A stretch of 64,000 nt of DNA from Candidatus Poribacteria bacterium (lineage in GTDB: Bacteria; Poribacteria; WGA-4E; PCPOR2b), in contig OZ242351.1 in the NCBI GenBank assembly GCA_965208675.1, positions 2,732,633 to 2,796,632 of the forward strand, written 5' to 3'. A program made the position numbers and the translations under genes. The notes beneath the pieces are model-generated. The model saw only the letters and a list, made by a program, of their open reading frames with translations. It made no database searches and was not told the origin of the DNA. Shown in pieces: positions 22,594 through 43,544 of the stretch; the stretch's first letter is position 1; each line of letters begins with the position of its first letter.

Positions 22594-24078
22594 TCAGTAT
22601 ATTACCCTTTCCTCCCTAAATAATTCGCCCATCATTATATTACCCTTCCCATCATAAATTCGCCACTCCCCATCCACTTTTCGCATTTTAAGAACGAATC
22701 CAGTGTTCCTGGGGCTATCCGACGTTGGCGCTTCTAATCGGAAATGAAATTCATCGCCGACATATTCACTACTCACAATCTCTATCTGACTATAACCCTC
22801 CCGCATCTTCGACTGTCCTTCCGGAGTTTGAATTGCATCCAGTCCCTTCAGTATAGACTGAATCACAGATTCTCTCGTCTTTTCTACTAACGCTTCTGGC
22901 ACCCCTTCTGGAAAATTATCTTCAATTGCATTTAAGGTTTCATTTACAAATTCTTCTGGAAACTCCCCTCCGAGGAAACGTAAACTAGTTTCAATATGAT
23001 CTCTGTAAGCTCCTGTCACAAAGGGGAGAGTTTCCTCTAAATCCACATTCTTAAGTGCTTCCACATAAGCGTTCATCACCTCTTCGGCGGATAAGATTGT
23101 GCCTTCTGATGCAACGGATGAATCGGTTTCGCCTGATTCGGAATCCTGATTAGATGCCCCGTCCGTTGCTAGTTGCGACGCCTGCGTTTCCGATTGTTCG
23201 TCGGCACCTTCTAGATGATCGAAGAAGTCCTCAATTTGCAGCATCTCTTCTGCGGAGATTTGCGGCTTATTTTCGGGTAAAGGTGCGCTGACCGCGCCTT
23301 TACGAGCGGTGTCCGTTTGAGCGACCGAGGTTTCAGACTCAGTTGGCGTCGAAGCTACAATCTCAACCGATGGAGACGAATCTTCTTTCGACGATATGAA
23401 CTGGCGCGTTCCGATGAAGGCGAGTACAATGATGGCTACCGCCCCGGCGGTGATTTTGGGTACTGTTCCAACTTTCATGACCGTTAATCCTCCTGAGTAG
23501 ATTTGTTTGAGTGTGGGCATCGGAGAAACAAACACACCAGTAAGCAGATGACCCAATCGTTTGGCGAGTTTCTGCTTGGCGCGCGAGAGCCGAAACGAAA
23601 TCGCCTTGTATGACAACCCATGCGTCCGAATCAGTTCGTCGTAGCCTGCGCCTTCAAGATAGTACGAGCGAGCGATTTCCCTATCTTTTTGCGGCAACGT
23701 TTCAATCGCGCGGCGAATCAGTTCCCTCTGTTCGCGGCGTATCAACTGTTCGTCGGGTGCGTCCGGGGTTAGGAGTGTGTGTGCGCTCGCTTCATCAATG
23801 GAAACAGTATTGACACGCTGTTTTCGCAACCAATCTCGTGCACTGTTTCGGGCAATCTCTGCCAGCCAGTATTTGAATTTTTCCCGATCCTCATACTGCA
23901 CCAAGCCACGGTAGGCGTTGAGAAAGGTGTCTTGCACAATCTCTTCGGCATCGTTCGGATTGTTTACAAATCCGATTACAACCGCATAAACAAAGGCGTA
24001 ATGCACCCGCATTAACTCCGTGAATGCACCTTCGTCCCCCGCTTGAACGCGGTAAATCAGATCTTTAGTGTTAGCCAC
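22594..24078 (-). CDS. ECF sigma factor fused to a TM segment and a C-terminal extracytoplasmic KMRK..WRIY module (subfamily A)
   Basis: GTG start with GGAGG RBS. Sigma region 2 (AEEIVQDTFLNAYRGL), region 4 HTH (LPQKDREIARSYYLEGAGYDELIRTHGLSYKAISFRLSRAKQKL), TM helix (KITAGAVAIIVLAFIGT), acidic S/P/E linker, PQISAEEMLQIEDFF motif, then EYVGDEFHFRL...KMRKVDGEWRIY. Has a 19-aa extension past the family C-terminus. Confidence 0.8.
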   Translation of the reverse strand: MANTKDLIYRVQAGDEGAFTELMRVHYAFVYAVVIGFVNNPNDAEEIVQDTFLNAYRGLVQYEDREKFKYWLAEIARNSARDWLRKQRVNTVSIDEASAHTLLTPDAPDEQLIRREQRELIRRAIETLPQKDREIARSYYLEGAGYDELIRTHGLSYKAISFRLSRAKQKLAKRLGHLLTGVFVSPMPTLKQIYSGGLTVMKVGTVPKITAGAVAIIVLAFIGTRQFISSKEDSSPSVEIVASTPTESETSVAQTDTARKGAVSAPLPENKPQISAEEMLQIEDFFDHLEGADEQSETQASQLATDGASNQDSESGETDSSVASEGTILSAEEVMNAYVEALKNVDLEETLPFVTGAYRDHIETSLRFLGGEFPEEFVNETLNAIEDNFPEGVPEALVEKTRESVIQSILKGLDAIQTPEGQSKMREGYSQIEIVSSEYVGDEFHFRLEAPTSDSPRNTGFVLKMRKVDGEWRIYDGKGNIMMGELFREERVIY

Positions 24079-24219: not shown

Positions 24220-24257
24220 TTGAAAATAAAAAAGGCGAATGGGTTGTACCATTCGCC
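24220..24257 (-). terminator. Intrinsic terminator (9-bp stem GGCGAATGG/CCATTCGCC + T-tract) after the 24296-25765 gene
   Basis: Minus strand reads GGCGAATGGtacaacCCATTCGCC followed by TTTTTTATTTTC. Confidence 0.6.
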
Positions 24258-24295
24258 ACGTGAAGTCTTTGGGAATAGAGTTGGGAGTTTGTTGA

Positions 24296-25765
24296 TTATT
24301 CCCTTGCATAAATTATCCACACTCCATCAACATTCCGCATCTTAACGAGGCGCATTATGCTTTCTGGTGGCTTTGGAAACCCTGGAGGAAGCTCTCCCAA
24401 TCCCGGTAGTTTTGGCATCGGCACGCTCAATCGGAAGTGAAATTCATCACCGACATATTCGCTCCTCACAATCTCCATCTCCCCATACATTTCCTGTGCC
24501 ATTTGCCGTATCTTCGCCTGCACTTTTGAATTCTGGTTAATCTCCAACATCATTTGCTGCAGACTATCCATCTGTTTTTCTGACATCGCTTCTTTTTCTT
24601 TCGACATCTCGTCGGAAATACGATCTGCTACGTCTTCTGAAAACCCATCACTGAAGATGTGCAAAGTAGTTTCAATGTGATTTCTGGCGGTCCCATCTAC
24701 GTACGGGAGCAATGCCTCAAAGTCAAAAGTCCTATATGCATCGAGATAAGTATCCATCAACTCTTCGGCGGCAAAACTAGCGCTTTCGGCTTCAAAAGAT
24801 GAATCAGTGACATTGCCTTTTTGAAAATCTTGATTGGTTGTCTCGTGCGTTGCTAGTTGTGAGATAGCGGCCTCCGATTGCGCGTCTGACTCATCAAGGT
24901 GAGCGAAAAAGTTTTCGATTTGCTGCATCTCCTCTGCAGAGATTTGCGGTTTGTCTTCAGGCACAGACGCGACGACTGCGCTTTTACGAGCGGCGTCCGT
25001 TTGAGCGACCGAGGTTTCAGGCTCAGTTGGCGTTGAAGCAACAATCTCTTCCGATGGCGACGAATCTTCTTTCGACGATAGGAACTGGCGCGTTCCGATG
25101 AAGGCGAGTACAATGATGGCTACGGCCCCGGCGGTGATTTTGGGTACTGTTCCAACTTTCATGACCGTTAATCCTCCTGAATAGATTTGTTTGAGTGTGG
25201 TTATCGGAGAAACGAATACACCAGAAAGCAGATGACCCAACCGCTTGGCGAGTTTCTGTTTGGCGCGTGAGAGTCGAAACGAAATTGCCTTGTATGACAA
25301 CCCGTGCGTCCGAATCAGTTCGTCGTAGCTTGCGCCTTCAAGATAGTACGAACGCGCGATGTCCCTATCTTTTTGCGGCAAGGTTTCCATCGCGCGGCGA
25401 ATCAGTTCTCTCTGTTCGCGGCGTATCAACTCTTCGTCAGGTGAATCCGCGGTTTGAAGCGTACCTTCGCTCACCTCGTTGATGGATACGGCGTCGATTC
25501 GTTGTTGTTCTCGCAACCAGTTTAAGGCTCGATTTCGCGCAATTTTTGCGAGCCAGCCTTTGAATCTTTTCGTATCCTCAAGTTGTGGCAAACCGCGGTA
25601 AGCGTTAAGGAAGATTTCTTGGACAACTTCCTCGGCGTCGTTGGGATTGTTTACGATTCCGATTACAATCGCATAAACGAAGGCATAATACGCCTGCATT
25701 AACTCAGTGAACGCACCTTCGTCCCATGTTTGGGCGCGAGAAATGAGGGCGTTGTCGTTATCCAC
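24296..25765 (-). CDS. ECF sigma-TM-periplasmic module fusion protein (subfamily A paralog)
   Basis: Same architecture and motifs. GTG start. C-terminus ...VKMRNVDGVWIIYARE. The sigma-domain region is nearly identical in DNA to the neighbouring paralogs. Confidence 0.8.
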   Translation of the reverse strand: MDNDNALISRAQTWDEGAFTELMQAYYAFVYAIVIGIVNNPNDAEEVVQEIFLNAYRGLPQLEDTKRFKGWLAKIARNRALNWLREQQRIDAVSINEVSEGTLQTADSPDEELIRREQRELIRRAMETLPQKDRDIARSYYLEGASYDELIRTHGLSYKAISFRLSRAKQKLAKRLGHLLSGVFVSPITTLKQIYSGGLTVMKVGTVPKITAGAVAIIVLAFIGTRQFLSSKEDSSPSEEIVASTPTEPETSVAQTDAARKSAVVASVPEDKPQISAEEMQQIENFFAHLDESDAQSEAAISQLATHETTNQDFQKGNVTDSSFEAESASFAAEELMDTYLDAYRTFDFEALLPYVDGTARNHIETTLHIFSDGFSEDVADRISDEMSKEKEAMSEKQMDSLQQMMLEINQNSKVQAKIRQMAQEMYGEMEIVRSEYVGDEFHFRLSVPMPKLPGLGELPPGFPKPPESIMRLVKMRNVDGVWIIYARE

Positions 25766-25899: not shown

Positions 25900-25937
25900 A
25901 GAAAATAAAAAAAGGCGAATGGGTTGAACCATTCGCC
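25900..25937 (-). terminator. Intrinsic terminator (same hairpin family) after the 25987-28728 gene
   Basis: GGCGAATGGttcaacCCATTCGCC + TTTTTTTATTTTC on the minus strand. Confidence 0.6.
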
Positions 25938-25986
25938 TTGTGAAATCTTGGGGAATACGGTTGTGGGTTTGTTAAGAGTTCCGCTT

Positions 25987-28728
25987 TTAATACAAATAAT
26001 TAACTTCGTAAATTTGCCATGCACCGTTCTCTTTTCGCATCTTAACAGACGTACCCGGCATCTCTAGGTGCTCGGGCATCTCCGGCAGCTCTATCCCCTG
26101 TAATTCGGGCATCTCCGATATGTCCGGTATCTCTATTTTCGGCATGGCTATTTTCAATTGGAAGTGGAATTCATCGTCGACATATTTACTGGTCACAATC
26201 TCAACCTGACTGAACATTGATCGCACCATCGGATTCTGCATCGTATCGTTTAACATCTGAATCATACCGTCCGCCATTTCTTCTGATAACCCAATGTCAT
26301 TATAATATATATCAACAAGCTCATCCGGAAGCTCACCGTTAAACATGCCTATAAGACCCGTTACCACTGGTCGGGCAGTGCCTGTCACATACGGCAGCAT
26401 CGTCTCAAGTTCAAGCTTTCTATACGCCTCTATATAGGCATTCATCAACTCTTCGGCGGATGCATTCGCGTCGGTTGTGCTGGACTCGGTTTCAGATTCA
26501 GACGGTAGTTGGGAGGTGTCCACTTCCGGTTCTTCGATTTGACCGAGGGAGTCCTTGCCAACGATGACGGTGGCGCGCTTGTTTCGAGGGAATACACTCG
26601 CCGCCAGGTGCTGCATGTCTGCATCGGTAACGCGCTGGATGGCATCACGCAATTCGTTGCCATCCAGTTTCAGTTGATACCGACGACCGGTGCTGAAAGC
26701 TAAACCGTAAAGGTTTTGCGCCCACATGGCATCCGGCACCTCAACTGTGCCCAACATTGCCATTGAGTTAAGCGTTCGCTGTTTGTCCTCCGGTGTAAGT
26801 TTTGTCGCCAACGCCGTGTTTAGGCGTTCGTCGAGTTGAATCAGTGCAATATGGTCGTCTGTGTCAGATTGTAGGTCGGTTTGGAGCACAAGTGTGGTAT
26901 CATCCTCCAGCGGTGTGAAGTACACACGCGGTGTTTTACCCGGCTGAAAGACGAACTGTGCGCTTGCCCACAAACGCGAGACAACTATCAGGAACGGCGC
27001 GTACTCCTTACTCCCGGGTCGGGGTGCAGCATATCCAATCGCTGCGACGCCGGTCGTATCGTCGTTCACAGGTTCTGCAGTAAGCAACCGCAGCCCGCCG
27101 GTCAATGCTATAGACTTGCGCGGTTTAATAGGGGGCGACACGCTGGGCGAAATGTGACCGAAGTTTTGGTGAATCAACTGCCGCGCTTCGGCAACGTCAA
27201 ACCCGCCTGCGATGGCAAGAATGGCGTTGTTCGGTTTGTAGTAATTCTGCCAAAATTGCTGGAGCTCGTCGAGCGTCATAGTCTCGATGTGCTCGGGCGC
27301 GACGCCGACGCGTCCGCCTTCGAGAATCGTGTGCAAGTGAGCTCGAACACTGTTTAAACCGACCAGCGACGGGACGCCACTATACATGTTCCTCAACTCC
27401 GCCATCACGCGAGGCACCTCACGATTCAGATCGGCTTGGGTAATGCGTAGGTCATTCATGCGGGTAGCCGCGTCCTTCAATTCGGACGCGAATTGTTTTG
27501 CTTCGACGACCCCGGCAAAAACGGTGTAGTCAAATCCCGTGTGCGAGTTCCAGCCTGCAACATAGCGTGCCTGAAGCTGTATGGCGCCGCGCGCTGGGGA
27601 GTCGCCGGCTGCAGCGGTATAATACAGGTGTTCAAGCAGGTGTGCTCTGCCGGACTTTCCGATCGGGTCGTGGTCTCCGCCCAAATTGAACAGCACTACA
27701 ACCGCCACTTGGCTTGACGTGGGAACAGGGCGTAGAATGACTGTCAGCCCATTTTCCAGTTTGTACGGCGCCCGTATCTCGGTCTTTGAAATTTTAACCT
27801 CGGCGACGGAGTTGATCGGACTCGGTTGCTCGGGCGAATTACCGACAATCCCCGTGCCGTGTTCACCAAGAACCGTTGGCGGTTTGGCCCCCTCGGCCAC
27901 GAGTTCCACCGGAATCTCTGCAAACATTGTCATCTGGATTTCGCTGGGAAGCGGTGAACTGGCCAGATCGCCGGGCGTAGCAACTGGTCGGAGAAATTGA
28001 TTGAAAAGCATAAAGGTAAGTACTATCCCGACGGTCGCTGAACCGATGAATGGAAGCAACGGCTTCGTTGAAATCGGTTGCACTTTGGTTGACTTAATGG
28101 CTTCGACGATTCGGAACGTAAAGCCTGACTGTAATTTTTTCTCTGCAAATGTGGTGTCTATCATCGAAATCAACTCCTCCTTCAGTTTGGTTCTGGCTCG
28201 CATCAACCGTTGGTTCACGGTGTTGACAGAAGTCCCCAAAAACCGCGCAATCTCCTTGCTACTCAGACCGCCAAGATAGTAGAGCGTCAACGTCTGTCGA
28301 TAGATTTCCGGCAATTGATCAATCGCCTCACGGATGGATTCGGCTGCGGCTTCGCTTCGATAGGCATCAATTGACGGTGTGTCCAAGAGCGCCGTGTCTT
28401 GGTCCTCGATGTAGTCTCCATCTGGACGGCGTAATCGGGATGTGAGAAAATTTGTGCACGAATTAACCGTAATTGAGAACAGCCACGCTAAGAAGTTATC
28501 CCGTCGCTTGAGGGTAGGAAGTTTCTGATAGGCTTTAATAAAGACTTCTTGGGTGATGTCCTCAGCATCGTGGAAGTTTCTAAGCTTTGTGTAAGCTAGG
28601 GCATAGACGCTCGACTTGTATTTATCAACGAGCAAGCCAAACGCCGCCGATTCTCCATTAAGGCATTTTCCGATGATGTATCCATCTTCTGTGTACACGG
28701 TTCTATTCCTCTCACCAAATGGCTTCAT
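25987..28728 (-). CDS. ECF sigma-TM fusion with periplasmic M16 (pitrilysin-like, HxxEH) peptidase domain and C-terminal KMRK..WRIY module (subfamily B)
   Basis: 913 aa. ECF regions 2 and 4 (DAEDITQEVFIKAYQKL; LSSKEIARFLGTSVNTVNQRLMRARTKL), TM (GSATVGIVLTFMLF), GKSGRAHLLEHLYYT inverted zinc motif, C-terminus ...SKYVDDEFHFQLK...VKMRKENGAWQIYEVNYLY. Confidence 0.8.
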   Translation of the reverse strand: MKPFGERNRTVYTEDGYIIGKCLNGESAAFGLLVDKYKSSVYALAYTKLRNFHDAEDITQEVFIKAYQKLPTLKRRDNFLAWLFSITVNSCTNFLTSRLRRPDGDYIEDQDTALLDTPSIDAYRSEAAAESIREAIDQLPEIYRQTLTLYYLGGLSSKEIARFLGTSVNTVNQRLMRARTKLKEELISMIDTTFAEKKLQSGFTFRIVEAIKSTKVQPISTKPLLPFIGSATVGIVLTFMLFNQFLRPVATPGDLASSPLPSEIQMTMFAEIPVELVAEGAKPPTVLGEHGTGIVGNSPEQPSPINSVAEVKISKTEIRAPYKLENGLTVILRPVPTSSQVAVVVLFNLGGDHDPIGKSGRAHLLEHLYYTAAAGDSPARGAIQLQARYVAGWNSHTGFDYTVFAGVVEAKQFASELKDAATRMNDLRITQADLNREVPRVMAELRNMYSGVPSLVGLNSVRAHLHTILEGGRVGVAPEHIETMTLDELQQFWQNYYKPNNAILAIAGGFDVAEARQLIHQNFGHISPSVSPPIKPRKSIALTGGLRLLTAEPVNDDTTGVAAIGYAAPRPGSKEYAPFLIVVSRLWASAQFVFQPGKTPRVYFTPLEDDTTLVLQTDLQSDTDDHIALIQLDERLNTALATKLTPEDKQRTLNSMAMLGTVEVPDAMWAQNLYGLAFSTGRRYQLKLDGNELRDAIQRVTDADMQHLAASVFPRNKRATVIVGKDSLGQIEEPEVDTSQLPSESETESSTTDANASAEELMNAYIEAYRKLELETMLPYVTGTARPVVTGLIGMFNGELPDELVDIYYNDIGLSEEMADGMIQMLNDTMQNPMVRSMFSQVEIVTSKYVDDEFHFQLKIAMPKIEIPDISEMPELQGIELPEMPEHLEMPGTSVKMRKENGAWQIYEVNYLY

Positions 28729-28822
28729 TTAGTATGACAATGCAAAAGACCGAAATATTACACGGGCAGACAATTTTTCGGTTGAAAGAGAGGATAAGTG
28801 ACAGGGTGTATCTGTTACCGAA

Positions 28823-28882: not shown

Positions 28883-28919
28883 TGAAAATAAAAAAGGCGA
28901 ATGGGTTGAACCATCCGCC
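28883..28919 (-). terminator. Intrinsic terminator (same hairpin family, 1 mismatch) after the 28966-30354 gene
   Basis: GGCGGATGGttcaacCCATTCGCC + TTTTTTATTTTC on the minus strand. Confidence 0.55.
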
Positions 28920-28965
28920 TTGCGAAGTCTTGTGGGATTGAGTTGCCGGTTGCTTTAACGTCTGA

Positions 28966-30354
28966 CTATTCATAAATTCGCCATGCCCCGTCCTCCTTTC
29001 GCATCTTAACAACGTTTTCTACGCTCTCCGGCAACTCTGGCATCTCGTCCAGTAGTTCCGCCCGTAGTTCTTCCGGCGTATCCCGCATCAGCGGTTCTAT
29101 CAGTGCTCCAAATTGTGGTAAAGTTGTTCTCACTCGAAAATGGAATTCATCGCCAACATATTCGCTGCTTACAACCTCGGACCCGCCAAGCACCGGGCCG
29201 AACGTCAACTCAATCATCTGCTTGAGCTCTGGATTTTCCTCCATAAAATCTTTCATGTCCGGCAAAACACTTTCCAGCTCTTCTTTAGCAGCCCCTGTCA
29301 ATAACGGGAGCATTGCCTAAAAGTCTAAATTCTTGGATGCCTCGATATAGGCGTTCATTACCTCTTCAGCGGATTGTTCCGTGTCTTCAACAACCGCATC
29401 GGTACTGATTGAGACATGCTGATCGAAGTCTTGCTGATGTGCGGCTTCTGCGTGTTGTGTTTTGTCCGATTGTGCGTCCGCTTCATCGAGTTGAGCGAAG
29501 AAGTTTTCAATTTGCTGCATCTCCTCTGCAGAGATTTGTGGTTTGTCTTCAGGCACAGGCGCGACGACTGCGCTTTTACGAGCGGCGTCCGTTTGAGCGG
29601 CGGAGGTTTCAGCCTCAGTTGGCGTTGAAGCAACAATCTCTACCGTTGGAGTCGAATCTTCTTTCGACGAAATGAACTGGCGTGTCCCGATGAAGGCGAG
29701 TGCGATGATGGCAACTGCCCCGGCGGTGATTTTGGGAACGGTTCCAACTTTCATGACCGTTAATCCTCCTGAGTAGATTTGTTTGAGTGTCAACGCGGGA
29801 AAGGCGAATACACCAGTGAGTAGATGGCTCAACCGCTTGGCGAGTTTCTGCTTGGCACGCGAAAGCCGAAACGAAATCGCCTTGTATGACAACCCATGCG
29901 TCCGAATCAGTTCGTCGTAGCTGGCGCCTTCAAGAAAGTAGGAGTGAGCGATGTCCCTATCTTTTTGCGGCAGCGATTCCATGGCACGTCGAATTAGTTC
30001 TCTCTGCTCGTCGCGAATCAAGCTTTCGTCAGCAGACTCTGACAACTGAACTGCCCGCTCATCCACTTCATCAATAGATACGGTGTCCAACCGCTGTTCG
30101 CGTAACCAGTTTAAGGCTCGATTTCGCGCAATTTTTGCCAGCCAACTCTTGAGTTTGGTCTGCTCCTCATACTGCGCTAAGGCGCAGTAGGCGTTGAGAA
30201 AGGTGTCTTGCACAATCTCTTCGGCGTCGTTGGGATTGTTCACGATTCCGATTACAACCGCATAAACGAAGGCATAATGCGCCCGCATCAATTCAGTGAA
30301 TGCACCTTCGTCTCCCGCTTGGGCGCGAGAAATGAGCGTATCGTCGTTCCTCAC
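28966..30354 (-). pseudogene. Subfamily-A ECF sigma-TM-module paralog interrupted by one in-frame TAG (29314-29316); may be expressed as two products
   Basis: ORFs 29317-30354 (sigma + TM + linker, ends ...KNLDF*) and 28966-29313 (AMLPLLTGAAKEE...VKMRKEDGAWRIYE) are in the same frame. Paralogs read DFEAM at this position, consistent with GAG to TAG. Confidence 0.6.
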
Positions 30355-30491: not shown

Positions 30492-30527
30492 GAAAATAAA
30501 AAAGGCGAATGGGTTGAACCATTCGCC
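30492..30527 (-). terminator. Intrinsic terminator (same hairpin family) after the WD40 gene
   Basis: GGCGAATGGttcaacCCATTCGCC + TTTTTTATTTTC on the minus strand. Confidence 0.6.
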
Positions 30528-30557
30528 TGGTGAAGTGTTGAGGAATTCGGTTGCGGG

Positions 30558-32441
30558 TCATCGAGAGACATCCCATAAAAGCACTGTTCCGTCGTAACTT
30601 CCACTCCCCAGCGTGCTCCCATCCGGGTTGAATGCCAGGGTACTAATGTACGACGTATGCCCCTTCAAGCTTCGTCGCTGCGTCTCCGTCTTGGCATCCC
30701 ACAGAAGGATGATTGCGTCGGCATCCCCACTCGCAAGCGTTCGTCCATTCGGGCTAAACTCTACCGCGGTAACATCTGCCGAGTGACCGTTTAGCGTTCT
30801 ACGGTGCGTCCCCGTGGCAGCATTCCAAAGCTGGACGGAATGGTCGCCGCTCCCACTGGCTATCTTGTTTCCGTCTGAGCTAAAGGCGACGCTCGTGATG
30901 TCCGCGGTATGACCCTTTAGTGTTCGGCGGTGCGCGCCCGTGGCGACATCCCAAAGTCGGATGGTTGCGTCGGTGCACCCGCTTGCCAACGTCGCGCCGT
31001 CTGGGCTGAACGCAAGCGTCGAGCGAGCCGGCCTGTAAACGCGAGGAACGGTGTCCGACGCCTCCCAGTGCAGGTTATGCAGTTGCGCACCCGTCTCGGC
31101 ATTCCACAGGCGGATAGTTGTTTCGCCGTTCCAACTTGCTACCGCTGAGCCATCCGGGCTGAACGCTATGCTGTGGTCTACGCCGTCATCGTTTCGTAAT
31201 GTCCGCAGATATGCACCTGTCTTTACATTCCAAAGGCAGACGGAATGATGCCCATTTCCACCTGCTAACGTTAGCCCATCCGGGCTAAATGCTATGCTAT
31301 GGGCCTCTGATAAATACCGGTCCAGTGACCGCTTGTGCTCGCCTGTCACAGCATCCCATAAACGAATGGGATTCAACCGGCTCGCACTTGCCAACGCCGC
31401 ACCGTTCGGGTTGAACGCTATGCTAATGACGGGTTTTATATGTCCATCCAGCGTCCCTAAGTGCGTATCCGTCACCGGATTCCACAGGCGAATTGTCCCG
31501 TCGTCACTCCCGCTTACCAACGTTGCACTATCCGGGCTGAAGACGACATGAGTGACCCAACCCGTATGTCCTTCTAGCTCCCGCAGCCGTGTTCCTGCCG
31601 CGACATTCCACAATCCGATGGTCGTGCCAGGCCCACCACTTGCCAAGATACTGCCATCCGGGCTGAACGCGACGCTCGAGACCATAGGTATGCGTTCTTC
31701 CAGTTGCCAAAGGTGTACTCCGGTCTTAGCGTTCCAAAGTCGGATGCTATCGCCCCAACCGCCGCTTGCCAGTACGCTGCCATCTGGGCTGAACGCGACC
31801 GCGGTGGCATACTCCGTGTGACCTTCCAGAGTTCGTACAGGTACGCCTGTCTCCACATCCCACAGACGAATAGTCTTGTCATAACTTGCGCCTGCCAACG
31901 TCGAGAAATCCGGGCTGAACGCGGCGGTACCAACGGAATATGTATCTCCCTGCGGAGTACGCAGTTCCAGTGACCGCGTATGTGTTTTAGTCTCGACATC
32001 CCACAGATGAACGGTCGTCTGCGACACACCTGCTAGTGTGCTGCCATCCGGGCTGAAAACCACGTTCAAGGTGCCCTCTGATTTTGCCTCCAGTGTATGT
32101 AGGTGTAAACCCGTCACGGCATCCCACAGACGAACGGTATTGTCCGAACTTCCACTCGCTAGCATGCTGCCATCCGGGCTGAACACTACGCTCGCCACAA
32201 TTCCCGAATGTCCGGTGAGCAGAGCTATCTCTTGATGGGTCGTTGTATCGTAGAGCCAGATACCGATTCCGCTGCCGACTGCAAGCCGAGCGCCATCGGG
32301 GGAATACTGTATTTGACCTATCGCCCCCTTTCCGATCCGCGCTACAACCCCTTCAGGCAAACCCCACTGCGAGGCATCTTGCGAAAAGGCGTTGCACAAG
32401 GTCAAGGAGAACAGTATATGCAAGGATAAAACTGTTTTCAT
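30558..32441 (-). CDS. Secreted WD40 beta-propeller repeat protein (~14 WD repeats)
   Basis: Signal peptide, then reiterated [HS]xxxVxSVAFSPDGxxLASGSxDxTIRLWD units throughout. Confidence 0.9.
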   Translation of the reverse strand: MKTVLSLHILFSLTLCNAFSQDASQWGLPEGVVARIGKGAIGQIQYSPDGARLAVGSGIGIWLYDTTTHQEIALLTGHSGIVASVVFSPDGSMLASGSSDNTVRLWDAVTGLHLHTLEAKSEGTLNVVFSPDGSTLAGVSQTTVHLWDVETKTHTRSLELRTPQGDTYSVGTAAFSPDFSTLAGASYDKTIRLWDVETGVPVRTLEGHTEYATAVAFSPDGSVLASGGWGDSIRLWNAKTGVHLWQLEERIPMVSSVAFSPDGSILASGGPGTTIGLWNVAAGTRLRELEGHTGWVTHVVFSPDSATLVSGSDDGTIRLWNPVTDTHLGTLDGHIKPVISIAFNPNGAALASASRLNPIRLWDAVTGEHKRSLDRYLSEAHSIAFSPDGLTLAGGNGHHSVCLWNVKTGAYLRTLRNDDGVDHSIAFSPDGSAVASWNGETTIRLWNAETGAQLHNLHWEASDTVPRVYRPARSTLAFSPDGATLASGCTDATIRLWDVATGAHRRTLKGHTADITSVAFSSDGNKIASGSGDHSVQLWNAATGTHRRTLNGHSADVTAVEFSPNGRTLASGDADAIILLWDAKTETQRRSLKGHTSYISTLAFNPDGSTLGSGSYDGTVLLWDVSR

Positions 32442-32681: not shown

Positions 32682-34895
32682 TTACTGATAATCAATGTCA
32701 TAAATTCGCCATTCATCAGCCTCTTTTCGCATCTTATAAGTCATATCCGGAATTTCCAGGTGGTCGGGCATCTCCGACAGTTCCATCCCCTCCGGCATTT
32801 CTATCCCTTGTAGTTCGGGCATTTCCGATACGTCCGGCATCTCTATTTTCGGTATCGGTATTCTCAATTTGAAATGAAATTCATTGCCGACAAATTCACT
32901 GCTTACAACCGTTAACTGACTGTATATTGAGCGCAAGCCTGCTTGCACCATGGGATTGTTCATAGAATCCTCCATCATCTGAACCGTGCCGTCCGGCATG
33001 GAATCTATAAGCTCTTCTGGAAACTCACCGCTAAACACGTCCATGGTACTTTTTACCTCTTCTAGGGCGGTGCCTGACAAATACGGGAGCATCGTATCAA
33101 GGTCAAGATTTTTATGTGCCTCTACAAAGGCGTTCATCACCTCTTCGGCGGATACGCCTGCGCTATCAACGCTTAATCGTGCATCCGATTCTTCAGAAGA
33201 GAGCAGAGAAGCGCCGCCAACGATGACGGTGTCGCGTTTCTCTGGCGAGAATACATTCGCTGCCAGGTGCTGCATATCTACATCGGTTACACGCTGGATG
33301 GCATCGCGCAGATCCCCGCCATTTAGTTTCAGTTGATACCGGCGGCCAATGCTGAACGCTAATCCGTACGGATTTTGCGCCCACATGGCATCCGGTACAT
33401 CAACTGTGCCCATCATTGCCATTGAGTTTATCGTTAGCTGTTTGTCCGCCGGCGTGAGTTTCGGCGTCAATGCCGTGTTTAGGCGTTGGTCGAGTTGATC
33501 GAGCGCTGACTCAATGTCCGCCTCAATTTGCACGTCGGTCTGGAGCACAAGCGTGGTGCCATCGTCCAATGGTGTAAAGTACACAGGCGGTGTTTTGCCC
33601 GGCTGAAATGCAGCCTGCGCGCCTGCCCACAAACGTGAGACAACTATCAGGAACGGCGCGTATTCCTTGCTCCCGGGTCGGGGTGCAGCATATCCAATCG
33701 CTGCGACGCCGGTCGTAACGTCGTTCACAGGTTCCGCGGTGATGAAGCGAATTGCCCCGGTCTTCGCTGCAGGCTTGGGCGGCTTTGCAGGCGGAGGCAT
33801 ACCGGACGGAATCAGGCTGAAGTTTTGGTCAATCAAATGCCGCGCTTCGGCAACGTCAAACCCGCCTGCGATGACAAGAACGGCGTTGTTCGGCTTGTAG
33901 TAATCCTGCCATAACTGCTGCAGTTCACCGAGAGTCATTGTCTCAATGTGCTCGGGCGCACCGCCGACCCGTCCGCTTTCGGGGATGGGGTGCACCTGAG
34001 CTCGCACACGGTTTATGCCGACCAGCGACGGCACGCCGCTGTACATGTTACTCAATTCTGTCATCACGCGAGGCACCTCGCGGATTAGATCAGCTAAGGT
34101 GATTTGCAAATCGTTCATGCGCGCAGCCGCATCCTTCAACTCCAACGCGAATTGCCCTGCTTCGACGACACCTGCAAAAACAGTGTAGTCGAACCCTGTT
34201 TGCGCGTTCCAGCCTGCAACATAGCGTTCTTGAAGCTTCATGGCGTCGCGCGCTGGGGTGTCACCGGCTGCAGCGGTGCAATACAGGTGTTCAAGCAGGT
34301 GTGCTCTGCCGGACTTTCCGATCGGGTCGTGGTCTCCGCCCAAATTGAACAGCACTACAACCGCCACTTGGCTTGACGTGGGAACAGGACGTAGAATGAC
34401 TGTCAGCCCATTGTCCAGTTTGTACGGGGTTGGTATCTCAGAATTCGAAATTGTAGCGGCGGCGTTCATCGAACTCGGTTGACCGGGCGAATTGCCGACA
34501 ACCCCCGTTCCGGGCTCACCGGCAACCGTCGGCGGTTTGGAGGCATCAGCAACGAGTTCAACCGGAATCTCTCCAATCATTGTCATCTGGATATCGCTGG
34601 GGTACGGTGAACTGGCCAGATCGCCGCGCGCAGCGGCTGGACGGAGCAATTGACTGAAAAACATAAAGGTAAGCACAATCCCGACTGCTGCTGAACCGAT
34701 GAACGCAGGCAACGGCTTTGTTGAAATTGGTTGCACTTTGGTTGACTTAATAGCTTCCACGATTCGGAACGTAAAGCCTGACTGTAATTTTCTCTCTGTA
34801 AATGTGGTGTCTATCATTGCAATTGACTCCTCCTTCAGTTTGGTTCTGGCTCGCATCAGCCAGTCGTTGACGGTATTGACGGAACGCTCAAACAC
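32682..34895 (-). CDS. Subfamily-B paralog lacking most of the sigma domain: region-4 remnant + TM + M16 peptidase domain + KMRK..WRIY module
   Basis: About 75% aa identity to 25987-28728 from SVNTVN..LMRARTKLKEE onward. HLLEH is intact. C-terminus ...YKMRKEADEWRIYDIDYQ. The ORF starts inside the sigma region-4 helix. Confidence 0.65.
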   Translation of the reverse strand: MFERSVNTVNDWLMRARTKLKEESIAMIDTTFTERKLQSGFTFRIVEAIKSTKVQPISTKPLPAFIGSAAVGIVLTFMFFSQLLRPAAARGDLASSPYPSDIQMTMIGEIPVELVADASKPPTVAGEPGTGVVGNSPGQPSSMNAAATISNSEIPTPYKLDNGLTVILRPVPTSSQVAVVVLFNLGGDHDPIGKSGRAHLLEHLYCTAAAGDTPARDAMKLQERYVAGWNAQTGFDYTVFAGVVEAGQFALELKDAAARMNDLQITLADLIREVPRVMTELSNMYSGVPSLVGINRVRAQVHPIPESGRVGGAPEHIETMTLGELQQLWQDYYKPNNAVLVIAGGFDVAEARHLIDQNFSLIPSGMPPPAKPPKPAAKTGAIRFITAEPVNDVTTGVAAIGYAAPRPGSKEYAPFLIVVSRLWAGAQAAFQPGKTPPVYFTPLDDGTTLVLQTDVQIEADIESALDQLDQRLNTALTPKLTPADKQLTINSMAMMGTVDVPDAMWAQNPYGLAFSIGRRYQLKLNGGDLRDAIQRVTDVDMQHLAANVFSPEKRDTVIVGGASLLSSEESDARLSVDSAGVSAEEVMNAFVEAHKNLDLDTMLPYLSGTALEEVKSTMDVFSGEFPEELIDSMPDGTVQMMEDSMNNPMVQAGLRSIYSQLTVVSSEFVGNEFHFKLRIPIPKIEMPDVSEMPELQGIEMPEGMELSEMPDHLEIPDMTYKMRKEADEWRIYDIDYQ

Positions 34896-35205
34896 TGCGC
34901 AATCTCTTTAGTAAATAGCCCCCTAGTATTTAACCCTTTGCTACGGGTAGAGAGATTCTGATACACTTAAAAAACATTACGTGCGCGGCATCCTCATCAT
35001 TAATTAAGTTACTCAGCTTTGCGTAAGCGAGAGCGTAGACGCTCGACTTGTATTTATCAAAGAGCAAGGCAAATGCCGCCGATTCTCTATTAAGGCATTT
35101 TCCGATGATGTATCCATCTTCCGTGTACACGCTGCTGCTCCTCTCACTGAACGACTTCATTTTGTAAGACAATGCAAAAGACTGAAAAATTACAAGGGTG
35201 GACAA
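34896..35205 (-). pseudogene. Disrupted N-terminal (sigma region 2) remnant of the 32682-34895 paralog
   Basis: ORF 34930-35205 translates MKSFSERSSSVYTEDGYIIGKCLNRESAAFALLFDKYKSSVYALAYAKL, which matches the N-terminus of the 25987-28728 paralog. About 300 bp covering sigma regions 2.3 to 4 are missing or garbled before the frame resumes at 34895. Confidence 0.6.
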
Positions 35206-35314: not shown

Positions 35315-35350
35315 TGGAAATAAAAAAGGCGAATGGGTTGAACCATTCGC
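35315..35350 (-). terminator. Intrinsic terminator (same hairpin family) after the 35427-36308 gene
   Basis: GGCGAATGGttcaacCCATTCGCC + TTTTTTATTTCC on the minus strand. Confidence 0.6.
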
Positions 35351-35426
35351 CTGGTGTATCGGGGCAAGGAAACTCCTCATACCAATGTCTACAGTACTCA
35401 TCCGACAGTTAATCGGTACTATGGAA

Positions 35427-36308
35427 TTATTCAGGGGAAGCCGAGTCGAAAGTGAAGCGCGTCTTCTGTGTATTTAGGGTCCCCTGGCGTTCGAGAAACT
35501 CGGCTAAAGGTTTAATATCTTCAATTGCGGTTTCTAAATTTTCAATCTCCTTGGCATGTTTTTCAGGGGAATGGTCTTTTAGCATCTGCTTTTTTAATTC
35601 GAGAAACCGAATAATCTCTGGAATCGTGCCTTCTTTCTCACGAGAAAGACGAAAAAAGAGTTCCTCCCATTCTTTTGTGAGAGGGTGTCCATGAAACGCG
35701 AGCGCGCTGAATGAGACAAGTTCCGCCCTTGCAGCTTTCGGGTCCGTCTGGAGCAGTTCATGAAATGCATGCAAATGCTCTTGCCCGACCTTGGTGTCCA
35801 AGATCGCCCCTGTTTTTGACGGCTCCTTCTGTTCATCCTGTTCCCGCGTTTCAAGAGTTGGCTCTGAACGTTCCCACATTTTTTTCAACTCATCGTAGTG
35901 TTCCAGCATTTTGCGGTGGTGTTGTATCTGTCTGGCAAACTCCCGGGCATTGATGTGTGTCAACATTCGGATTTCCAATTCGGACACCCGTTTGAGATCC
36001 GAAAGATGTTCAGTACCTTCTCGGCTAAGGCGAAAGTAGAGGGGCACCCATTCTTCAGCGAGTGCGTGTCCGCCAAACATTTTTTTTGCAACGTTTTGGA
36101 GTTCTGAGCGGGCTGCTGCAGGGTCGGTGGGCAGGCGTTTCTTAAATGTGTCGAGGTGCTCTGTCCAAAGTGTGCAGTCTATACGATACGGTTGAGAACG
36201 TGCAGGCCTCAGGTGTGGGGGTTCTGTGGGTTCACCTGAATGACCAAAAGAAAGAGATCCAATGCTGCAAAAAGTTAAGTAAAGCAAGCAAGTGATTATA
36301 TACCTCAT
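35427..36308 (-). CDS. Secreted hypothetical protein with an internal ~100-aa tandem duplication
   Basis: Signal peptide. Two repeats sharing TDPxAARxEL...GHxLxxEWxxLxFRLSRE... Confidence 0.55.
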   Translation of the reverse strand: MRYIITCLLYLTFCSIGSLSFGHSGEPTEPPHLRPARSQPYRIDCTLWTEHLDTFKKRLPTDPAAARSELQNVAKKMFGGHALAEEWVPLYFRLSREGTEHLSDLKRVSELEIRMLTHINAREFARQIQHHRKMLEHYDELKKMWERSEPTLETREQDEQKEPSKTGAILDTKVGQEHLHAFHELLQTDPKAARAELVSFSALAFHGHPLTKEWEELFFRLSREKEGTIPEIIRFLELKKQMLKDHSPEKHAKEIENLETAIEDIKPLAEFLERQGTLNTQKTRFTFDSASPE

Positions 36309-36478: not shown

Positions 36479-36919
36479 CTAATTCGAGGCGGTCACTTTT
36501 GAGATTGCCATTCCTGATATCTCCGGCATCTCGGGCGGCGGTCCGCCCATTTTGAAGTGGAATTCATCCCCAACATATTTGCTACTCACAACTCCTAACC
36601 GACTAAAATACTCAAGTACAGTTTGTTCAACCATCTGACGCATCTCAGCCGGCATTTCCGGTACAATTTCCGGATCCATGAGCGGGAAGCCCATTACCGC
36701 AGCCTTTTCAAACTCCTCTTTGGCAGTCCCTGTCATTAGCGAACCCATCGCCTCAAAGTCCATATTCTTAAACGCCTTCACGAAAGTATTCATCACATCT
36801 TCAGCAGATTGAGACGTGCTCCCTGACGGCATTTCCACATCTTTTTTCTCCGATACACTCAATGAACAGCCGTTAACAAACAAAGGCAAACAGACAAGGC
36901 TCACAATCAAAAATCGCAT
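36479..36919 (-). CDS. Stand-alone lipoprotein carrying the family's periplasmic module (no sigma, no TM), ending at an in-frame TAG
   Basis: Start MRFLIVSLVCLPLFVNGC (lipobox) with GGAG RBS. Contains FKNMDFEAMGSLMTGTAKEE and VSSKYVGDEFHFKM. The TAG at 36479-36481 is followed in frame by IIKMRKENGVWRIYDSETLD* up to about 36413. Confidence 0.6.
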   Translation of the reverse strand: MRFLIVSLVCLPLFVNGCSLSVSEKKDVEMPSGSTSQSAEDVMNTFVKAFKNMDFEAMGSLMTGTAKEEFEKAAVMGFPLMDPEIVPEMPAEMRQMVEQTVLEYFSRLGVVSSKYVGDEFHFKMGGPPPEMPEISGMAISKVTASN

Positions 36920-37136
36920 TTTCTCTCCTTTGTGGTAGTAGCGATTGGTAGACAAACCGTGTATGGCATTAGCGACAGGTTGCTTATCGCGGGAAGCTAG
37001 GAATGATTTGAGCATGCATCCACGTACATGTAATGACATTGACTACAACAAATTTTTGACCGCCACTCAGAAAAATGAAGTTGTCGTGAGGAGGCAAGAG
37101 TTCAGCCACAAGCCGATTATTCACCATCGGCTGCGT

Positions 37137-38639
37137 TCAATCGGATACTGATTCGCGCGAGTCCAATATCTCACTCTCATAAACCCGCCACGCGCCATTC
37201 CCTTTCCGCATCTTGAAAAGTGTATTTGGCACAATGACGTCTGAGATTTCTATCCATGTAATCTCCGACTTATCCGGCGCTGGTCCTCCCAATACAAAGT
37301 GAAATTCATCGCCGACATATTCGTTACGCACCACATCTAGCTGACTGAGAGATTTCAGCCACACGTTTCGCATCTTCCGCTCAAATGCCCCACTTCTTAT
37401 CTCTTGTTCAATACTCCGCATCTGCTGTTCAGCCATCTGACGCATCTCAACCGGCAAATCCGACAAATCTTTTAGCCTATCTAGCAGTTTAGCTAGTTCA
37501 GCCGGGTCTAGGATTGGGAAGTTGCCTGTCGCCGCCATGGCCCACTCTCCTTTGATGCGTCCTGTGGATAGAGAGTGTACCGCTTCAAAGTCAAGATTCT
37601 GAAACCCTTTCACATAAGCGTTCATCACTTCTTCTGCGGATAAGTCCGTGTCTTCTGCTACAACAGGTGAATCGGTGTCGCCTAATTCGGAATCCTGATT
37701 AGATGCTTCATCTGTTGCTAGTTGTGGCGAATCTGCCTCCGATTGTGCGTCTGCACCCTCAAGTTGAGCGAAGAAGTCCTCAATCTGCCCCATCTCCTCC
37801 GCTGAAATTTGCGGCTTACCCTCACGCGAGGGTGCGGCGAACGTACCTTTACGCGTGGCGTCCGTTTGTGAGGCTAGGTTTGCAGACTCAGTTGATGTTA
37901 CAATCTCGACCGTAGGGGAGTTATCCTCTTTCGACGATATGAACTGGCGTGTCCCGATGAAAGCGAGTACAATGATGGCTACCGCACCGGCAGTGATTTT
38001 GGCAACTGTTCCAACTTTCATGACCGTTAATCCTCCTGAATAGAAATTTTTGAGTGAGGTTATCGGAGAAACGAACACACCGCTGAGCAGATGCTCCAAC
38101 CGTTTGGCAAGTTTCTGTTTGGCGCGCGAAAGTCGAACCGAAATCGCTTTGTAAGACAGTCCGTGCGTACTCATTAGTTCGTCATAGTCCGCACCGTCAA
38201 GGTAATAAGAGTGAACAATCTCCCGCTCTTTTGGAGAAAGCGTTCCAAGTGCGCGTCGAATCAGCTCCCTCTGTTCACTGAGAATCAACTGTTCGTCTGG
38301 CAATTCTTGCGTCTTGACGGTGGATTTACCGATTTCATCAAACAGGCTTAATTCGTCTATAGGAACAGTATCAATCCGTTGTTTTCTCAGCCAACTTCGT
38401 GCGCGATTTCGAGCAATCTCTGCGAGCCAAGTTTTGAATTTTGACCTCTCCTCATACTGCGCCAAACCACGGTAGACGTTGAGAAAGGTGTCCTGGACAA
38501 TCTCTTCGGCGTCTTGGGGGTTGTTCACCATATCGATGACGATTGCATAAACGAAAGAGTGATATGCCCGTATCAGATCGACAAATGCACCTTCATCCCC
38601 AGCTCGCGCGCGACAAATGAGTGCGCTGTCATTATCCAC
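37137..38639 (-). CDS. ECF sigma-TM-periplasmic module fusion protein (subfamily A paralog)
   Basis: 500 aa. GTG start. Sigma regions 2 and 4, TM (KITAGAVAIIVLAFIGT), PQISAEEMGQIEDFF, C-terminus ...NEYVGDEFHFVL...FKMRKGNGAWRVYESEILD... Confidence 0.8.
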   Translation of the reverse strand: MDNDSALICRARAGDEGAFVDLIRAYHSFVYAIVIDMVNNPQDAEEIVQDTFLNVYRGLAQYEERSKFKTWLAEIARNRARSWLRKQRIDTVPIDELSLFDEIGKSTVKTQELPDEQLILSEQRELIRRALGTLSPKEREIVHSYYLDGADYDELMSTHGLSYKAISVRLSRAKQKLAKRLEHLLSGVFVSPITSLKNFYSGGLTVMKVGTVAKITAGAVAIIVLAFIGTRQFISSKEDNSPTVEIVTSTESANLASQTDATRKGTFAAPSREGKPQISAEEMGQIEDFFAQLEGADAQSEADSPQLATDEASNQDSELGDTDSPVVAEDTDLSAEEVMNAYVKGFQNLDFEAVHSLSTGRIKGEWAMAATGNFPILDPAELAKLLDRLKDLSDLPVEMRQMAEQQMRSIEQEIRSGAFERKMRNVWLKSLSQLDVVRNEYVGDEFHFVLGGPAPDKSEITWIEISDVIVPNTLFKMRKGNGAWRVYESEILDSRESVSD

Positions 38640-39039: not shown

Positions 39040-39807
39040 TCACATGCTAACGACTAGTCCAAAATTGCTGTATGCATCGGCCATCGGCACGGTCAATCGG
39101 AATTGGAATTCATCGCCGACATATTCACTACCCACGATTGTCGTCTGACGGAAAATTCGACGCCATTTCGCTAGGTTTTCCGGAGATCGAATTGAATCCA
39201 TTGCTTTGTAAGCCGACTCAACTGCCTCGTCTATTTCAGTTTCGGACATACCATCGTCGATTGAAGTCAGGTAGTCATTCAGCATTTTTTCCGGCATCAC
39301 CCCACCGAGAACACTCAAAAGGTTTTCAATAGGTTTCCTGGCATTCTCAGTAGTGAATGGGAGAACCGTCTCCAAATCGAAATCCCTAAACGCATCCACG
39401 AACTTATTCATCACTTGTTCAGCGGGATGCTCTAGATTTGCACCCGAGTCTTCGGAGAAGTGTTCAGCGCTATCCTGTATTATCTCTGCGTTTAGTGATG
39501 ATTTCGGTTCATCCAACTCTGGTTGTTCAGCCATGTCTTCGAGTTGGGCGAAAAAGTCCTCAATTTGCTGCAGCTCTGCGGCAGAGATTCGCAGCGTGTC
39601 TTCTGGCAAAGCGCTATCGATTTCGGCATTTCGCGCCGTACGCGTTTGAGCGGCCGAATCTGAAAACTCCTTTGGCGATGATATTACAATCTCAACCTCT
39701 CGATCCGAATCCTCTTCAGCCGAAATGAACCAGAGTGTTATAATCGTGCCGACTAAAATGAGGGCTACTGCACCGGCTACGGTTTTGTGAAGCGTTCCAA
39801 ATTTCAT
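39040..39807 (-). CDS. Sigma-less family member (TM anchor + acidic linker + periplasmic module) with premature TGA in the KMRK motif
   Basis: Starts MKFGTLHKTVAGAVALILVGTIITL, homologous to the ...MKVGTVPKITAGAVAIIVLAFIGT segment of full-length paralogs. Contains LRISAAELQQIEDFFAQLED and ...SEYVGDEFQFRL...VVSM. The TGA at 39040-39042 is followed in frame by KVDGEWRIYRMKS* (CGA to TGA at the Arg of KMRK). Confidence 0.65.
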   Translation of the reverse strand: MKFGTLHKTVAGAVALILVGTIITLWFISAEEDSDREVEIVISSPKEFSDSAAQTRTARNAEIDSALPEDTLRISAAELQQIEDFFAQLEDMAEQPELDEPKSSLNAEIIQDSAEHFSEDSGANLEHPAEQVMNKFVDAFRDFDLETVLPFTTENARKPIENLLSVLGGVMPEKMLNDYLTSIDDGMSETEIDEAVESAYKAMDSIRSPENLAKWRRIFRQTTIVGSEYVGDEFQFRLTVPMADAYSNFGLVVSM

Positions 39808-43491: not shown

Positions 43492-43527
43492 GAAAAGAAA
43501 AAAGGCGAATGGATTGAACCATTCGCC
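43492..43527 (-). terminator. Intrinsic terminator (same hairpin family) after the orphan module fragment, upstream of the Omp85 gene
   Basis: GGCGAATGGttcaatCCATTCGCC + TTTTTTCTTTTC on the minus strand. Confidence 0.55.
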
Positions 43528-43544
43528 TTGTGTAGTTTTTGGAC

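Follow-up and report, generated by a model that had tools for sequence, protein, structure and literature searches.

A sigma factor joined across a membrane span to an M16B peptidase domain in Candidatus Poribacteria

Why should a sigma factor share one polypeptide, and one membrane span, with a peptidase? The question is raised by an open reading frame (ORF), 25987-28728 on the reverse strand, of a 64,000-nucleotide stretch of contig OZ242351.1 (assembly GCA_965208675.1); the whole stretch analysed is called the window below. The original prediction had described two paralogous sigma-fusion proteins in it, 25987-28728 (copy 1) and 32682-34895 (copy 2), each with a membrane span followed by an inserted M16 metallopeptidase domain. 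For copy 1, this architecture of sigma factor, transmembrane (TM) helix and metallopeptidase is real and recurs in Poribacteria and Planctomycetota; in copy 2, the sigma part has been lost. Our best reading of copy 1 is a one-component, membrane-spanning extracytoplasmic function (ECF) sigma factor of Candidatus Poribacteria. Its locus corresponds to metagenome-assembled genomes (MAGs) of this group, and all close loci are such MAGs.

Copy 1 is composed, in this order, of an ECF sigma factor, a short helix, a single TM helix, a conserved juxtamembrane linker, a complete M16B unit and a C-terminal NTF2-like module. The features are given here with residues numbered in the frame of 913 residues, as throughout the text.

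28732..28762, reverse strand: bipartite promoter-like motif TGTAAT-N17-TGTCATAC, directly upstream of 25987-28728
25987..28728, reverse strand: ORF of the sigma-TM-M16B-NTF2 protein, 913 residues
28432..28632, reverse strand: ECF sigma region 2, residues 33-99 (Pfam Sigma70_r2, 57.3 bits)
28183..28341, reverse strand: ECF sigma region 4, residues 130-182 (Pfam Sigma70_r4_2, 67.2 bits)
28093..28122, reverse strand: cytoplasmic juxtamembrane helix FTFRIVEAIK, at the usual anti-sigma position (AlphaFold2 (AF2) helix, residues 203-212)
27994..28059, reverse strand: single TM helix, residues 224-245, LLPFIGSATVGIVLTFMLFNQF (hydropathy scan)
27775..27993, reverse strand: extracytoplasmic juxtamembrane linker, residues 246-318, with the motif SPLPSE-x7-(A/G)EIPVELV, in copy 1 (W1) read as AEIPVELV
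26548..27774, reverse strand: complete M16B unit, residues 319-727, active-type N-domain and C-domain (Pfam, PDB sequence matches, Foldseek)
27628..27642, reverse strand: inverted zinc motif H363-L-L-E366-H367
27397..27420, reverse strand: E437-VPRVMA-E444, with E444 as third zinc ligand (aligned to the E...E of PDB 4nnz)
25990..26469, reverse strand: C-terminal NTF2-like module, residues 754-913, ending in ...KMRKENGAWQIYE, common to the neighbouring sigma-TM paralogs
25912..25939, reverse strand: intrinsic-terminator-like hairpin after 25987-28728, with an identical hairpin at 28894-28921, before the promoter region

The sigma assignment is carried by two further models (TIGR02937, 97.3 bits against a cutoff of 42.9; Sigma70_ECF, 31 bits), and the protein has regions sigma2 and sigma4 only, as in the definition of the ECF family (group 4). 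Just ~35 residues, including one helix of 10 residues, lie between sigma region 4 and the TM helix. No Pfam family for an anti-sigma domain, of either the FecR or the zinc-finger type, matched copy 1 or the scanned homologues, and a CnrY match over the TM region of copy 2 (E 0.027; 15.3 bits against a cutoff of 25) was judged not significant. An anti-sigma factor encoded next door was also ruled out: the neighbours are sigma-TM-NTF2 paralogs, a WD40 protein and small ORFs of the NTF2 module. The single hydrophobic span, the Lys-rich sequence before it, and the standalone ectodomain homologues that have an N-terminal signal or anchor together point to a topology with the N-terminus inside and an extracytoplasmic C-terminus.

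The probable true start of the ORF is a GTG at 28698, preceded by GAGAGGA, which gives a product of 903 residues; the annotations of homologues begin at the equivalent codon, and a Kelch-fused relative has ATG there. An exact look-up of this product gave no record, and copy 1 is apparently absent from the protein collection, in which the best match is 82%. Copy 1 is under purifying selection, with ratios of nonsynonymous to synonymous divergence (dN/dS) of 0.09-0.16 in the sigma part, 0.22-0.24 in residues 196-318 (linker and TM helix) and 0.29-0.36 in M16, and with a looser constraint (0.5-0.6) on the NTF2 module. The full-length AF2 model has a mean predicted local distance difference test score (pLDDT) of 77.7, which exceeds 90 over most of the M16 region. 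The juxtamembrane linker, by comparison, is disordered in the model (residues 215-314, pLDDT <35) yet conserved in sequence.

The identification of the ectodomain as M16, proposed earlier from an HLLEH motif said to be kept in both copies, was borne out. Pfam matches were obtained in copy 1 for Peptidase_M16 (residues 330-446; 25.1 bits against a gathering cutoff of 22.3) and Peptidase_M16_C (residues 484-579; 43.5 bits against a cutoff of 23), and the zinc ligands, the catalytic Glu, the second (inactive) half and a consistent structure model are all present. The spacing is the canonical HxxEH-76-E, with E444 at H367 + 77 in the segment R-E437-VPRVMA-E444. Both 25987-28728 and 32682-34895 have HLLEH, within GKSGRAHLLEHLY(Y/C)TAAAGD, and in both a downstream REVPRVM(A/T)E supplies the third ligand Glu. 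Sequence matches of the unit in the PDB include 4nnz, 5euf, the beta subunit of mitochondrial processing peptidase (MPP-beta) and 3amj. In Foldseek, the model of copy 1 was superposed on whole M16B subunits (3ami, 5euf, 4nnz, TTHA1265, 3hdi and MPP-beta) with target-normalised TM scores of 0.75-0.79 over ~425 columns, which indicates that both M16 halves are present. The possibility that HLLEH is a chance match was ruled out, since profile, spacing and fold are concordant.

In M16B enzymes, the C-domain binds substrate through an R/Y pair of residues. The M16 C-domain of these proteins has an invariant GRR(Y/H)QL, and its divergence from solved structures precludes alignment at the level of residues; a search of PDB sequences with the C-terminal half of M16 aligned only the inter-domain region. 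Taken as a whole, the M16 domain of copy 1 is a complete, active-looking M16B protomer.

The earlier view of this domain as inserted into members of a paralog family proved imprecise: the sigma-TM part of copy 1 is only ~30% identical to the sigma of its neighbours, with which only the C-terminal module is common. Residues 1-308 instead match the N-termini of sigma-TM-WD40 proteins (P0046, P0047) at 90% identity and those of many sigma-TM-Kelch proteins at ~57%, and both FTFRIVEAIK on the cytoplasmic side and SPLPSE-x7-(A/G)EIPVELV on the periplasmic side are kept across the M16, WD40 and Kelch fusions. The C-terminal module has the NTF2-like fold, an alpha+beta cone with N-terminal helices packed on a curved antiparallel sheet; matches to Pfam families of the NTF2 clan are sub-threshold only. 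At least eight further ORFs of the window encode it, and its source in copy 1 is the neighbouring paralog family. As judged from these alignments, copy 1 is a mosaic of three separately circulating modules rather than a paralog with an insertion.

Between the two copies lies the gene of a secreted, multi-blade WD40 protein (30558-32441, reverse strand) with its own signal peptide. It is 66-68% identical to the ectodomains of the sigma-TM-WD40 proteins, and its signal peptide stands where they have the sigma cassette, at a shared junction, QDAS(E/Q)WGLPEG. In one relative, a sigma-TM-WD40 gene comes after a sigma-less M16 gene. These ectodomains thus occur both free and tethered to sigma. The ECF57 group of sigma factors is also reported to have WD40 content, and other types of ectodomain or extension on ECF sigma factors of these phyla include ankyrin repeats, thioredoxin/TPR, and DUF4159 before or after M16 (L003 5657-7939; P0104; P0052, P0084).

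The distribution of this subfamily was scanned with alignment-derived peptide patterns in one genome per species. The scan returned 58 loci; of the 27 closest (54-71% identity), 23 bear the label of Candidatus Poribacteria MAGs, the rest being labelled uncultured or Planctomycetota. Most Poribacteria have a standalone M16B of ~443 residues with an N-terminal signal or anchor, which is 54-71% identical to the domain of copy 1 and always has HxxEH. The orthologous sigma-M16 fusions anticipated in related genomes were found: full-length relatives of copy 1 have 70-82% identity, and distant sigma-TM-M16 proteins, from Planctomycetota where a taxon is given, have 33-42%. Such fusions are present in some Poribacteria and also in Planctomycetota, Isosphaeraceae among them, where M16 identity is ~40% and some of the proteins have additional TM helices or DUF4159. 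The window is syntenic with the loci of two relatives, with Omp85, DLH and PhyH on one side and FG-GAP and TPR on the other, and the syntenic loci hold either the full fusion or the sigma-less form.

In neighbour-joining trees of M16 (Kimura distances, 100 bootstraps), the fusion domains of Poribacteria are monophyletic (83/100). They adjoin a standalone poribacterial M16B (88/100), within a clade that excludes the planctomycete fusions (90/100). Because the poribacterial fusions are nested among standalone M16B and lie apart from those of planctomycetes, at least two fusion events are indicated: the sigma-TM-M16 fusion probably arose at least twice, separately in Planctomycetota. On the same grounds, the M16 of copy 1 is derived from the widespread secreted or anchored poribacterial M16B of ~443 residues.

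An exhaustive search was made of 1.84 billion representatives: the top 150 relatives are mostly standalone proteins of ~440 residues, and about 15 have a long N-terminal extension. Ten of these extended representatives were tested, with six ECF sigma fusions, one Ser/Thr kinase-TM-M16 protein and one erythromycin-esterase fusion as the result. In the latter kinase fusion, P0136 (830 residues, metagenomic), a TM helix connects the Ser/Thr protein kinase to an M16B ectodomain that belongs to the same subfamily and has intact HLSEH and RE..E; this layout resembles that of a receptor kinase. The occurrence on sigma factors and on a Ser/Thr kinase marks this M16 subfamily as a putative recurrent extracytoplasmic input domain.

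Does the input domain need to be an enzyme? The residues H363, E366, H367, E437 and E444 were scored in each class of architecture. All five are intact in 7/9 proteins of class A (sigma-TM-M16-NTF2, including copy 1) and in 8/8 of class C (TM-M16-NTF2 without sigma, including copy 2), and the distant planctomycete fusions all keep the motifs. In class B, a sister group of 875-residue sigma-TM-M16 proteins with a different C-terminus, only 7/30 are intact; 20/30 combine a change of E366 to A, G or S with E444K, and 3/30 have E444K alone. The catalytic Glu and/or the zinc-ligand Glu is thus missing from 23/30 of these proteins, though sigma, TM helix, linker and M16 are all kept, which argues that catalysis is dispensable in class B. 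The original prediction had offered two functions, a self-processing protease or a substrate sensor; the second is better supported, given the dead class B, the kinase ectodomain, and the WD40 and Kelch domains on the same cassette.

Copy 2 differs from copy 1 in the loss of most of its sigma part, and its features are as follows.

32682..34817, reverse strand: copy 2, sigma-less TM-M16B-NTF2 protein of 711 residues from ATG 34817 (the mechanical ORF extends to 34895)
34287-34301, reverse strand: HLLEH
34056-34079, reverse strand: EVPRVMTE
34936..35194, reverse strand: N-terminal sigma remnant of copy 2, 75 codons (34936-35160) and then a stop, with a promoter-like motif (35164-35194)

The ORF 32682-34895 aligns to copy 1 from residue 151 on (69% identity), and the remnant at 34936-35160 is 64% identical to residues 1-74. 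The deletion in copy 2 covers sigma residues ~75-150, from the end of sigma2 through the linker into the start of sigma4; of region 4 just the final ~30 residues are kept, which places copy 2 outside the ECF definition; the earlier claim of a sigma fusion does not hold here. An assembly artefact was ruled out as the cause of the truncation, the breakpoint being identical in independent MAGs. In Pfam, Peptidase_M16 scores 21.5 bits, just below the cutoff of 22.3, and M16_C 49.2 bits. The product from ATG 34817 is 100% identical to a database protein (P0034), and other Poribacteria genomes contain sigma-less orthologues that share its breakpoint. All catalytic residues are kept and M16 has a dN/dS of 0.36. 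Selection, catalytic residues and orthologues together indicate that copy 2 is a stable, membrane-anchored M16-NTF2 derivative. Between 32682-34895 and a sigma-less orthologue (L004 5527-7761), synonymous divergence (dS) is 0.065 in M16 and 0.21-0.28 in the flanks, a hint that the M16 part has recently undergone recombination or gene conversion.

Upstream of both copies lies the same bipartite motif. TGTAAT-N17-TGTCATAC has two matches in the window against 0.02 expected, one upstream of copy 1 and one upstream of the remnant of copy 2. Among the fetched loci it is found exclusively upstream of W1-type sigma cassettes (9 loci with the motif, 55 without), and at a Kelch fusion with 57% sigma identity, TGTCAG-N17-TGTCAT stands amid otherwise unrelated sequence. 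The 150 nt upstream of 25987-28728 are conserved across species, and a scan for sigma-70-type promoters found nothing above chance near this gene. We infer that the motif is a candidate autoregulated ECF-type promoter. The identical hairpins that bracket 25987-28728 suggest that the gene is monocistronic. Six copies of one 25-nt GC-rich hairpin (AGGCGAATGGTTCAACCCATTCGCC and then a T-run) lie on the reverse strand (24234-24258, 25914-25938, 28896-28920, 30504-30528, 35328-35352 and 43504-43528), each just downstream of a gene of the cluster; the hairpin would be either a small repeat element or a terminator that was copied together with the gene cassettes.

How would such a protein work? On balance, and by a modest degree of confidence only, we hold it probable that copy 1 is a one-component membrane-tethered ECF sigma factor with a peptide-binding M16 sensor, from which sigma is freed by intramembrane proteolysis. 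The M16 clamshell, probably a dimer as in other M16B enzymes, would be the extracytoplasmic input domain that captures unstructured peptides, which the M16 of copy 1 would probably also cleave. Occupancy by ligand would alter the exposure of the juxtamembrane segment, the conserved and common regulatory element in this proposal, to a site-1 cut. A site-2 protease of the RseP type would then cut the TM helix and release the sigma domain, which would drive transcription from TGTAAT-N17-TGTCATAC upstream of its own gene and probably also upstream of copy 2; copy 2 may be a target of copy 1, its dimer partner, or both. Since there is no anti-sigma domain, tethering itself or the FTFRIVEAIK helix would have to restrain sigma. 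The window encodes an RseP-type site-2 protease (3772-5583, reverse strand; Peptidase_M50 and several PDZ domains), which is a candidate for cutting this genome's many single-pass tethered sigma factors.

Several points weigh against this reading. The active site of copy 1 is intact, and a role as sensor rather than enzyme is an extrapolation from the dead sister clade. The RseP-like gene is weak evidence, as a housekeeping gene 20 kb off, and in the absence of an anti-sigma domain the tethered sigma may work in place. In close relatives, conservation of the promoter-like motif could simply reflect the duplicated cassette, with the Kelch locus as the sole counter-argument. The trees are neighbour-joining only and give weak support (59/100) to the monophyly of the planctomycete fusions.

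The alternative that survives best, though we consider it unlikely, is that copy 1 serves mainly as a periplasmic peptidase anchored in the membrane, a housekeeping scavenger of peptides comparable to the standalone poribacterial M16B of 443 residues, and that its sigma domain works while tethered, in the style of ToxR or CadC, or is released on turnover as a homeostatic feedback on its own synthesis. The 55-71% identity of M16 to the standalone secreted or anchored M16B of most Poribacteria MAGs is in keeping with this idea, as are the stable maintenance of a sigma-less version, the lack of an anti-sigma domain to hold sigma inactive, and the gene's own conserved promoter and terminators. However, the independent fusions to sigma and to a kinase favour a role as input domain over mere anchoring, catalytically dead versions are retained, and it is sterically awkward for a sigma factor to bind RNA polymerase and DNA on a membrane tether of ~35 residues.

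Rather less probable still is an all-in-one switch, in which M16 would itself be the site-1 protease that cuts the juxtamembrane tether (residues 246-318), in cis or in trans within a dimer, before RseP frees sigma. M16B enzymes such as mitochondrial processing peptidase cut extended N-terminal segments of larger proteins, and MPP-beta is among the closest structures. In addition, the active site is intact and canonical in geometry in copy 1, in 7/9 of class A and in 8/8 of class C, and a segment of ~70 residues that is unstructured yet conserved lies directly N-terminal to M16. Set against this, the juxtamembrane segment is also kept in the protease-free WD40 and Kelch fusions, so that any processing must be possible without M16; the 23/30 class B proteins that have lost zinc ligand and/or catalytic Glu retain the rest of the architecture; and the linker is undocked from the M16 cavity in the AF2 model (pLDDT <35). 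An elaboration of comparably low probability would be a self-contained cascade with sensor, site-1 protease and transcription factor in one polypeptide: two tethered M16 halves would close on a periplasmic peptide ligand or on the (A/G)EIPVELV of the partner chain, and closure or cleavage would license the intramembrane cut and with it the release of sigma, with copy 2 as a titrating partner in hetero-dimers and the dead clade as a binding-only derivative.

Finally, it is very improbable that the fusion is a non-functional, decaying by-product of cassette shuffling in the paralog array, on its way to the state of copy 2, a view to which the lost sigma part of copy 2, a GAG-to-TAG nonsense codon in a neighbouring paralog and the variable domain combinations of closely related genomes lend some colour: the ORF of 913 residues is intact, every part is under purifying selection (dN/dS 0.09-0.36, looser at 0.5-0.6 in NTF2), full-length orthologues occur in many MAGs, and promoter, Shine-Dalgarno sequence and terminator are all conserved.

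Around the two copies lie five tandem paralogs that consist of an ECF sigma, a TM helix, an acidic low-complexity linker and an NTF2-like module (22594-24078, 24296-25765, 28966-30354, 37137-38639 and 45131-46564, all on the reverse strand). Their sigma domains and that of the M16 fusion share ~30% identity, and comparable arrays are present in all related Poribacteria loci examined (L001-L009, L026, L062). The paralog 28966-30354 has an in-frame TAG at 29314-29319 (..NLDF*AMLP..) where relatives have GAG, either a recent nonsense mutation or a sequencing error. Two small ORFs, 36479-37039 and 39040-39807 (reverse strand), combine a hydrophobic N-terminus with an NTF2-like module, without sigma; one of them is without the final KMRK..W.IY strands. 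Between the remnant of copy 2 and the next ORF with an NTF2 module, 35427-36308 (reverse strand) encodes 293 residues with a signal peptide and two repeats of ~90 residues (..G.P/ALxxEW..L(Y/F)FRLSRE..), and had no match in Pfam.

These arrays suggest that sponge symbionts have a large, lineage-specific capacity to sense proteinaceous cues. Beyond this lineage, the sensor reading of copy 1 bears on two more general points. The first is that the M16B subfamily emerges as a recurrent input domain, fused at least two times to sigma and also to a Ser/Thr kinase, with naturally inactivated variants; to our knowledge, M16 enzymes have not been discussed as receptors so far. The second is that a portable cassette (sigma, 10-residue helix, TM helix and juxtamembrane motif, with no anti-sigma) is found on M16, WD40 and Kelch ectodomains, and this portability opens the control of such a tethered sigma to direct tests, with ectodomains exchanged in a foreign host.

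Planctomycetota and related phyla are rich in ECF sigma factors whose C-terminal extension spans the membrane; only one such sigma factor, which has a normal anti-sigma domain, is mechanistically characterised. This is IutY of Pseudomonas putida (ECF243), a hybrid of sigma and anti-sigma activated by Prc and RseP and, among fused sigma factors, the sole one demonstrated to be released by regulated intramembrane proteolysis (PMC8999054). Copy 1 resembles IutY in that one chain unites an ECF sigma at its N-terminus, a single membrane span and a C-terminal part outside the cytoplasm. In IutY, however, a FecR-type anti-sigma lies between sigma and membrane and the signal comes from a TonB-dependent receptor, whereas copy 1 has ~35 residues at this position, no detected anti-sigma, and an ectodomain of M16B and NTF2.

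Other ECF groups with TM-containing C-terminal extensions are ECF52 (SCO4117), ECF48/53 and ECF57 (PMC8999054, PMC7826278). Copy 1 shares with ECF52, ECF48/53 and ECF57 the layout of a one-component sigma with a membrane span and an outside sensor domain, a kind abundant in Planctomycetes. It differs from ECF52 and ECF48/53, in which a zinc-finger anti-sigma-like segment is combined with carbohydrate-binding or proline-rich ectodomains, by its M16 ectodomain and the lack of an anti-sigma. The main text of the ECF classification paper makes no mention of an M16 ectodomain on a sigma factor, and literature searches for sigma with M16 or pitrilysin and for Poribacteria with ECF returned nothing relevant. 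Within the literature searched, sigma factors that signal across the membrane as one protein are a known kind, of which the M16-tipped form has had no description.

A further parallel is RsgI9 of Clostridium thermocellum, an anti-sigma-I factor with an ectodomain of S1C peptidase-like and NTF2 domains (PDB 7sjy), which indicates that an ectodomain with a protease fold and NTF2 is able to serve as a sensor in sigma signalling (PMC12203970). RsgI9 is, in contrast to copy 1, a Firmicute anti-sigma with a serine S1C fold and an autocleaving periplasmic domain, and homology is limited to the NTF2 fold. For M16 itself, the nearest counterparts are Sph2681/2682 (3ami/3amj), PA0371-PA0372 (4nnz), TTHA1264/1265 (7v4y, 5hxk), BH2405 (3hdi), the Helicobacter pylori protein 5euf and MPP beta (1hr6). 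These M16B peptidases have in common with copy 1 the two-domain protomer of ~420 residues, the HxxEH-76-E site and the fold (TM score 0.75-0.79); they are soluble or stand-alone homo- or heterodimers, only 14-20% identical to copy 1, and none is joined to a transcription factor. In the DegS-RseA-sigmaE system of E. coli, a periplasmic protease senses peptides of unfolded proteins and starts a cascade that frees an ECF sigma via RseP. That system requires at least three proteins and senses through a serine protease with PDZ, whereas copy 1 combines a protease-fold sensor and a sigma factor in one polypeptide, without an anti-sigma factor.

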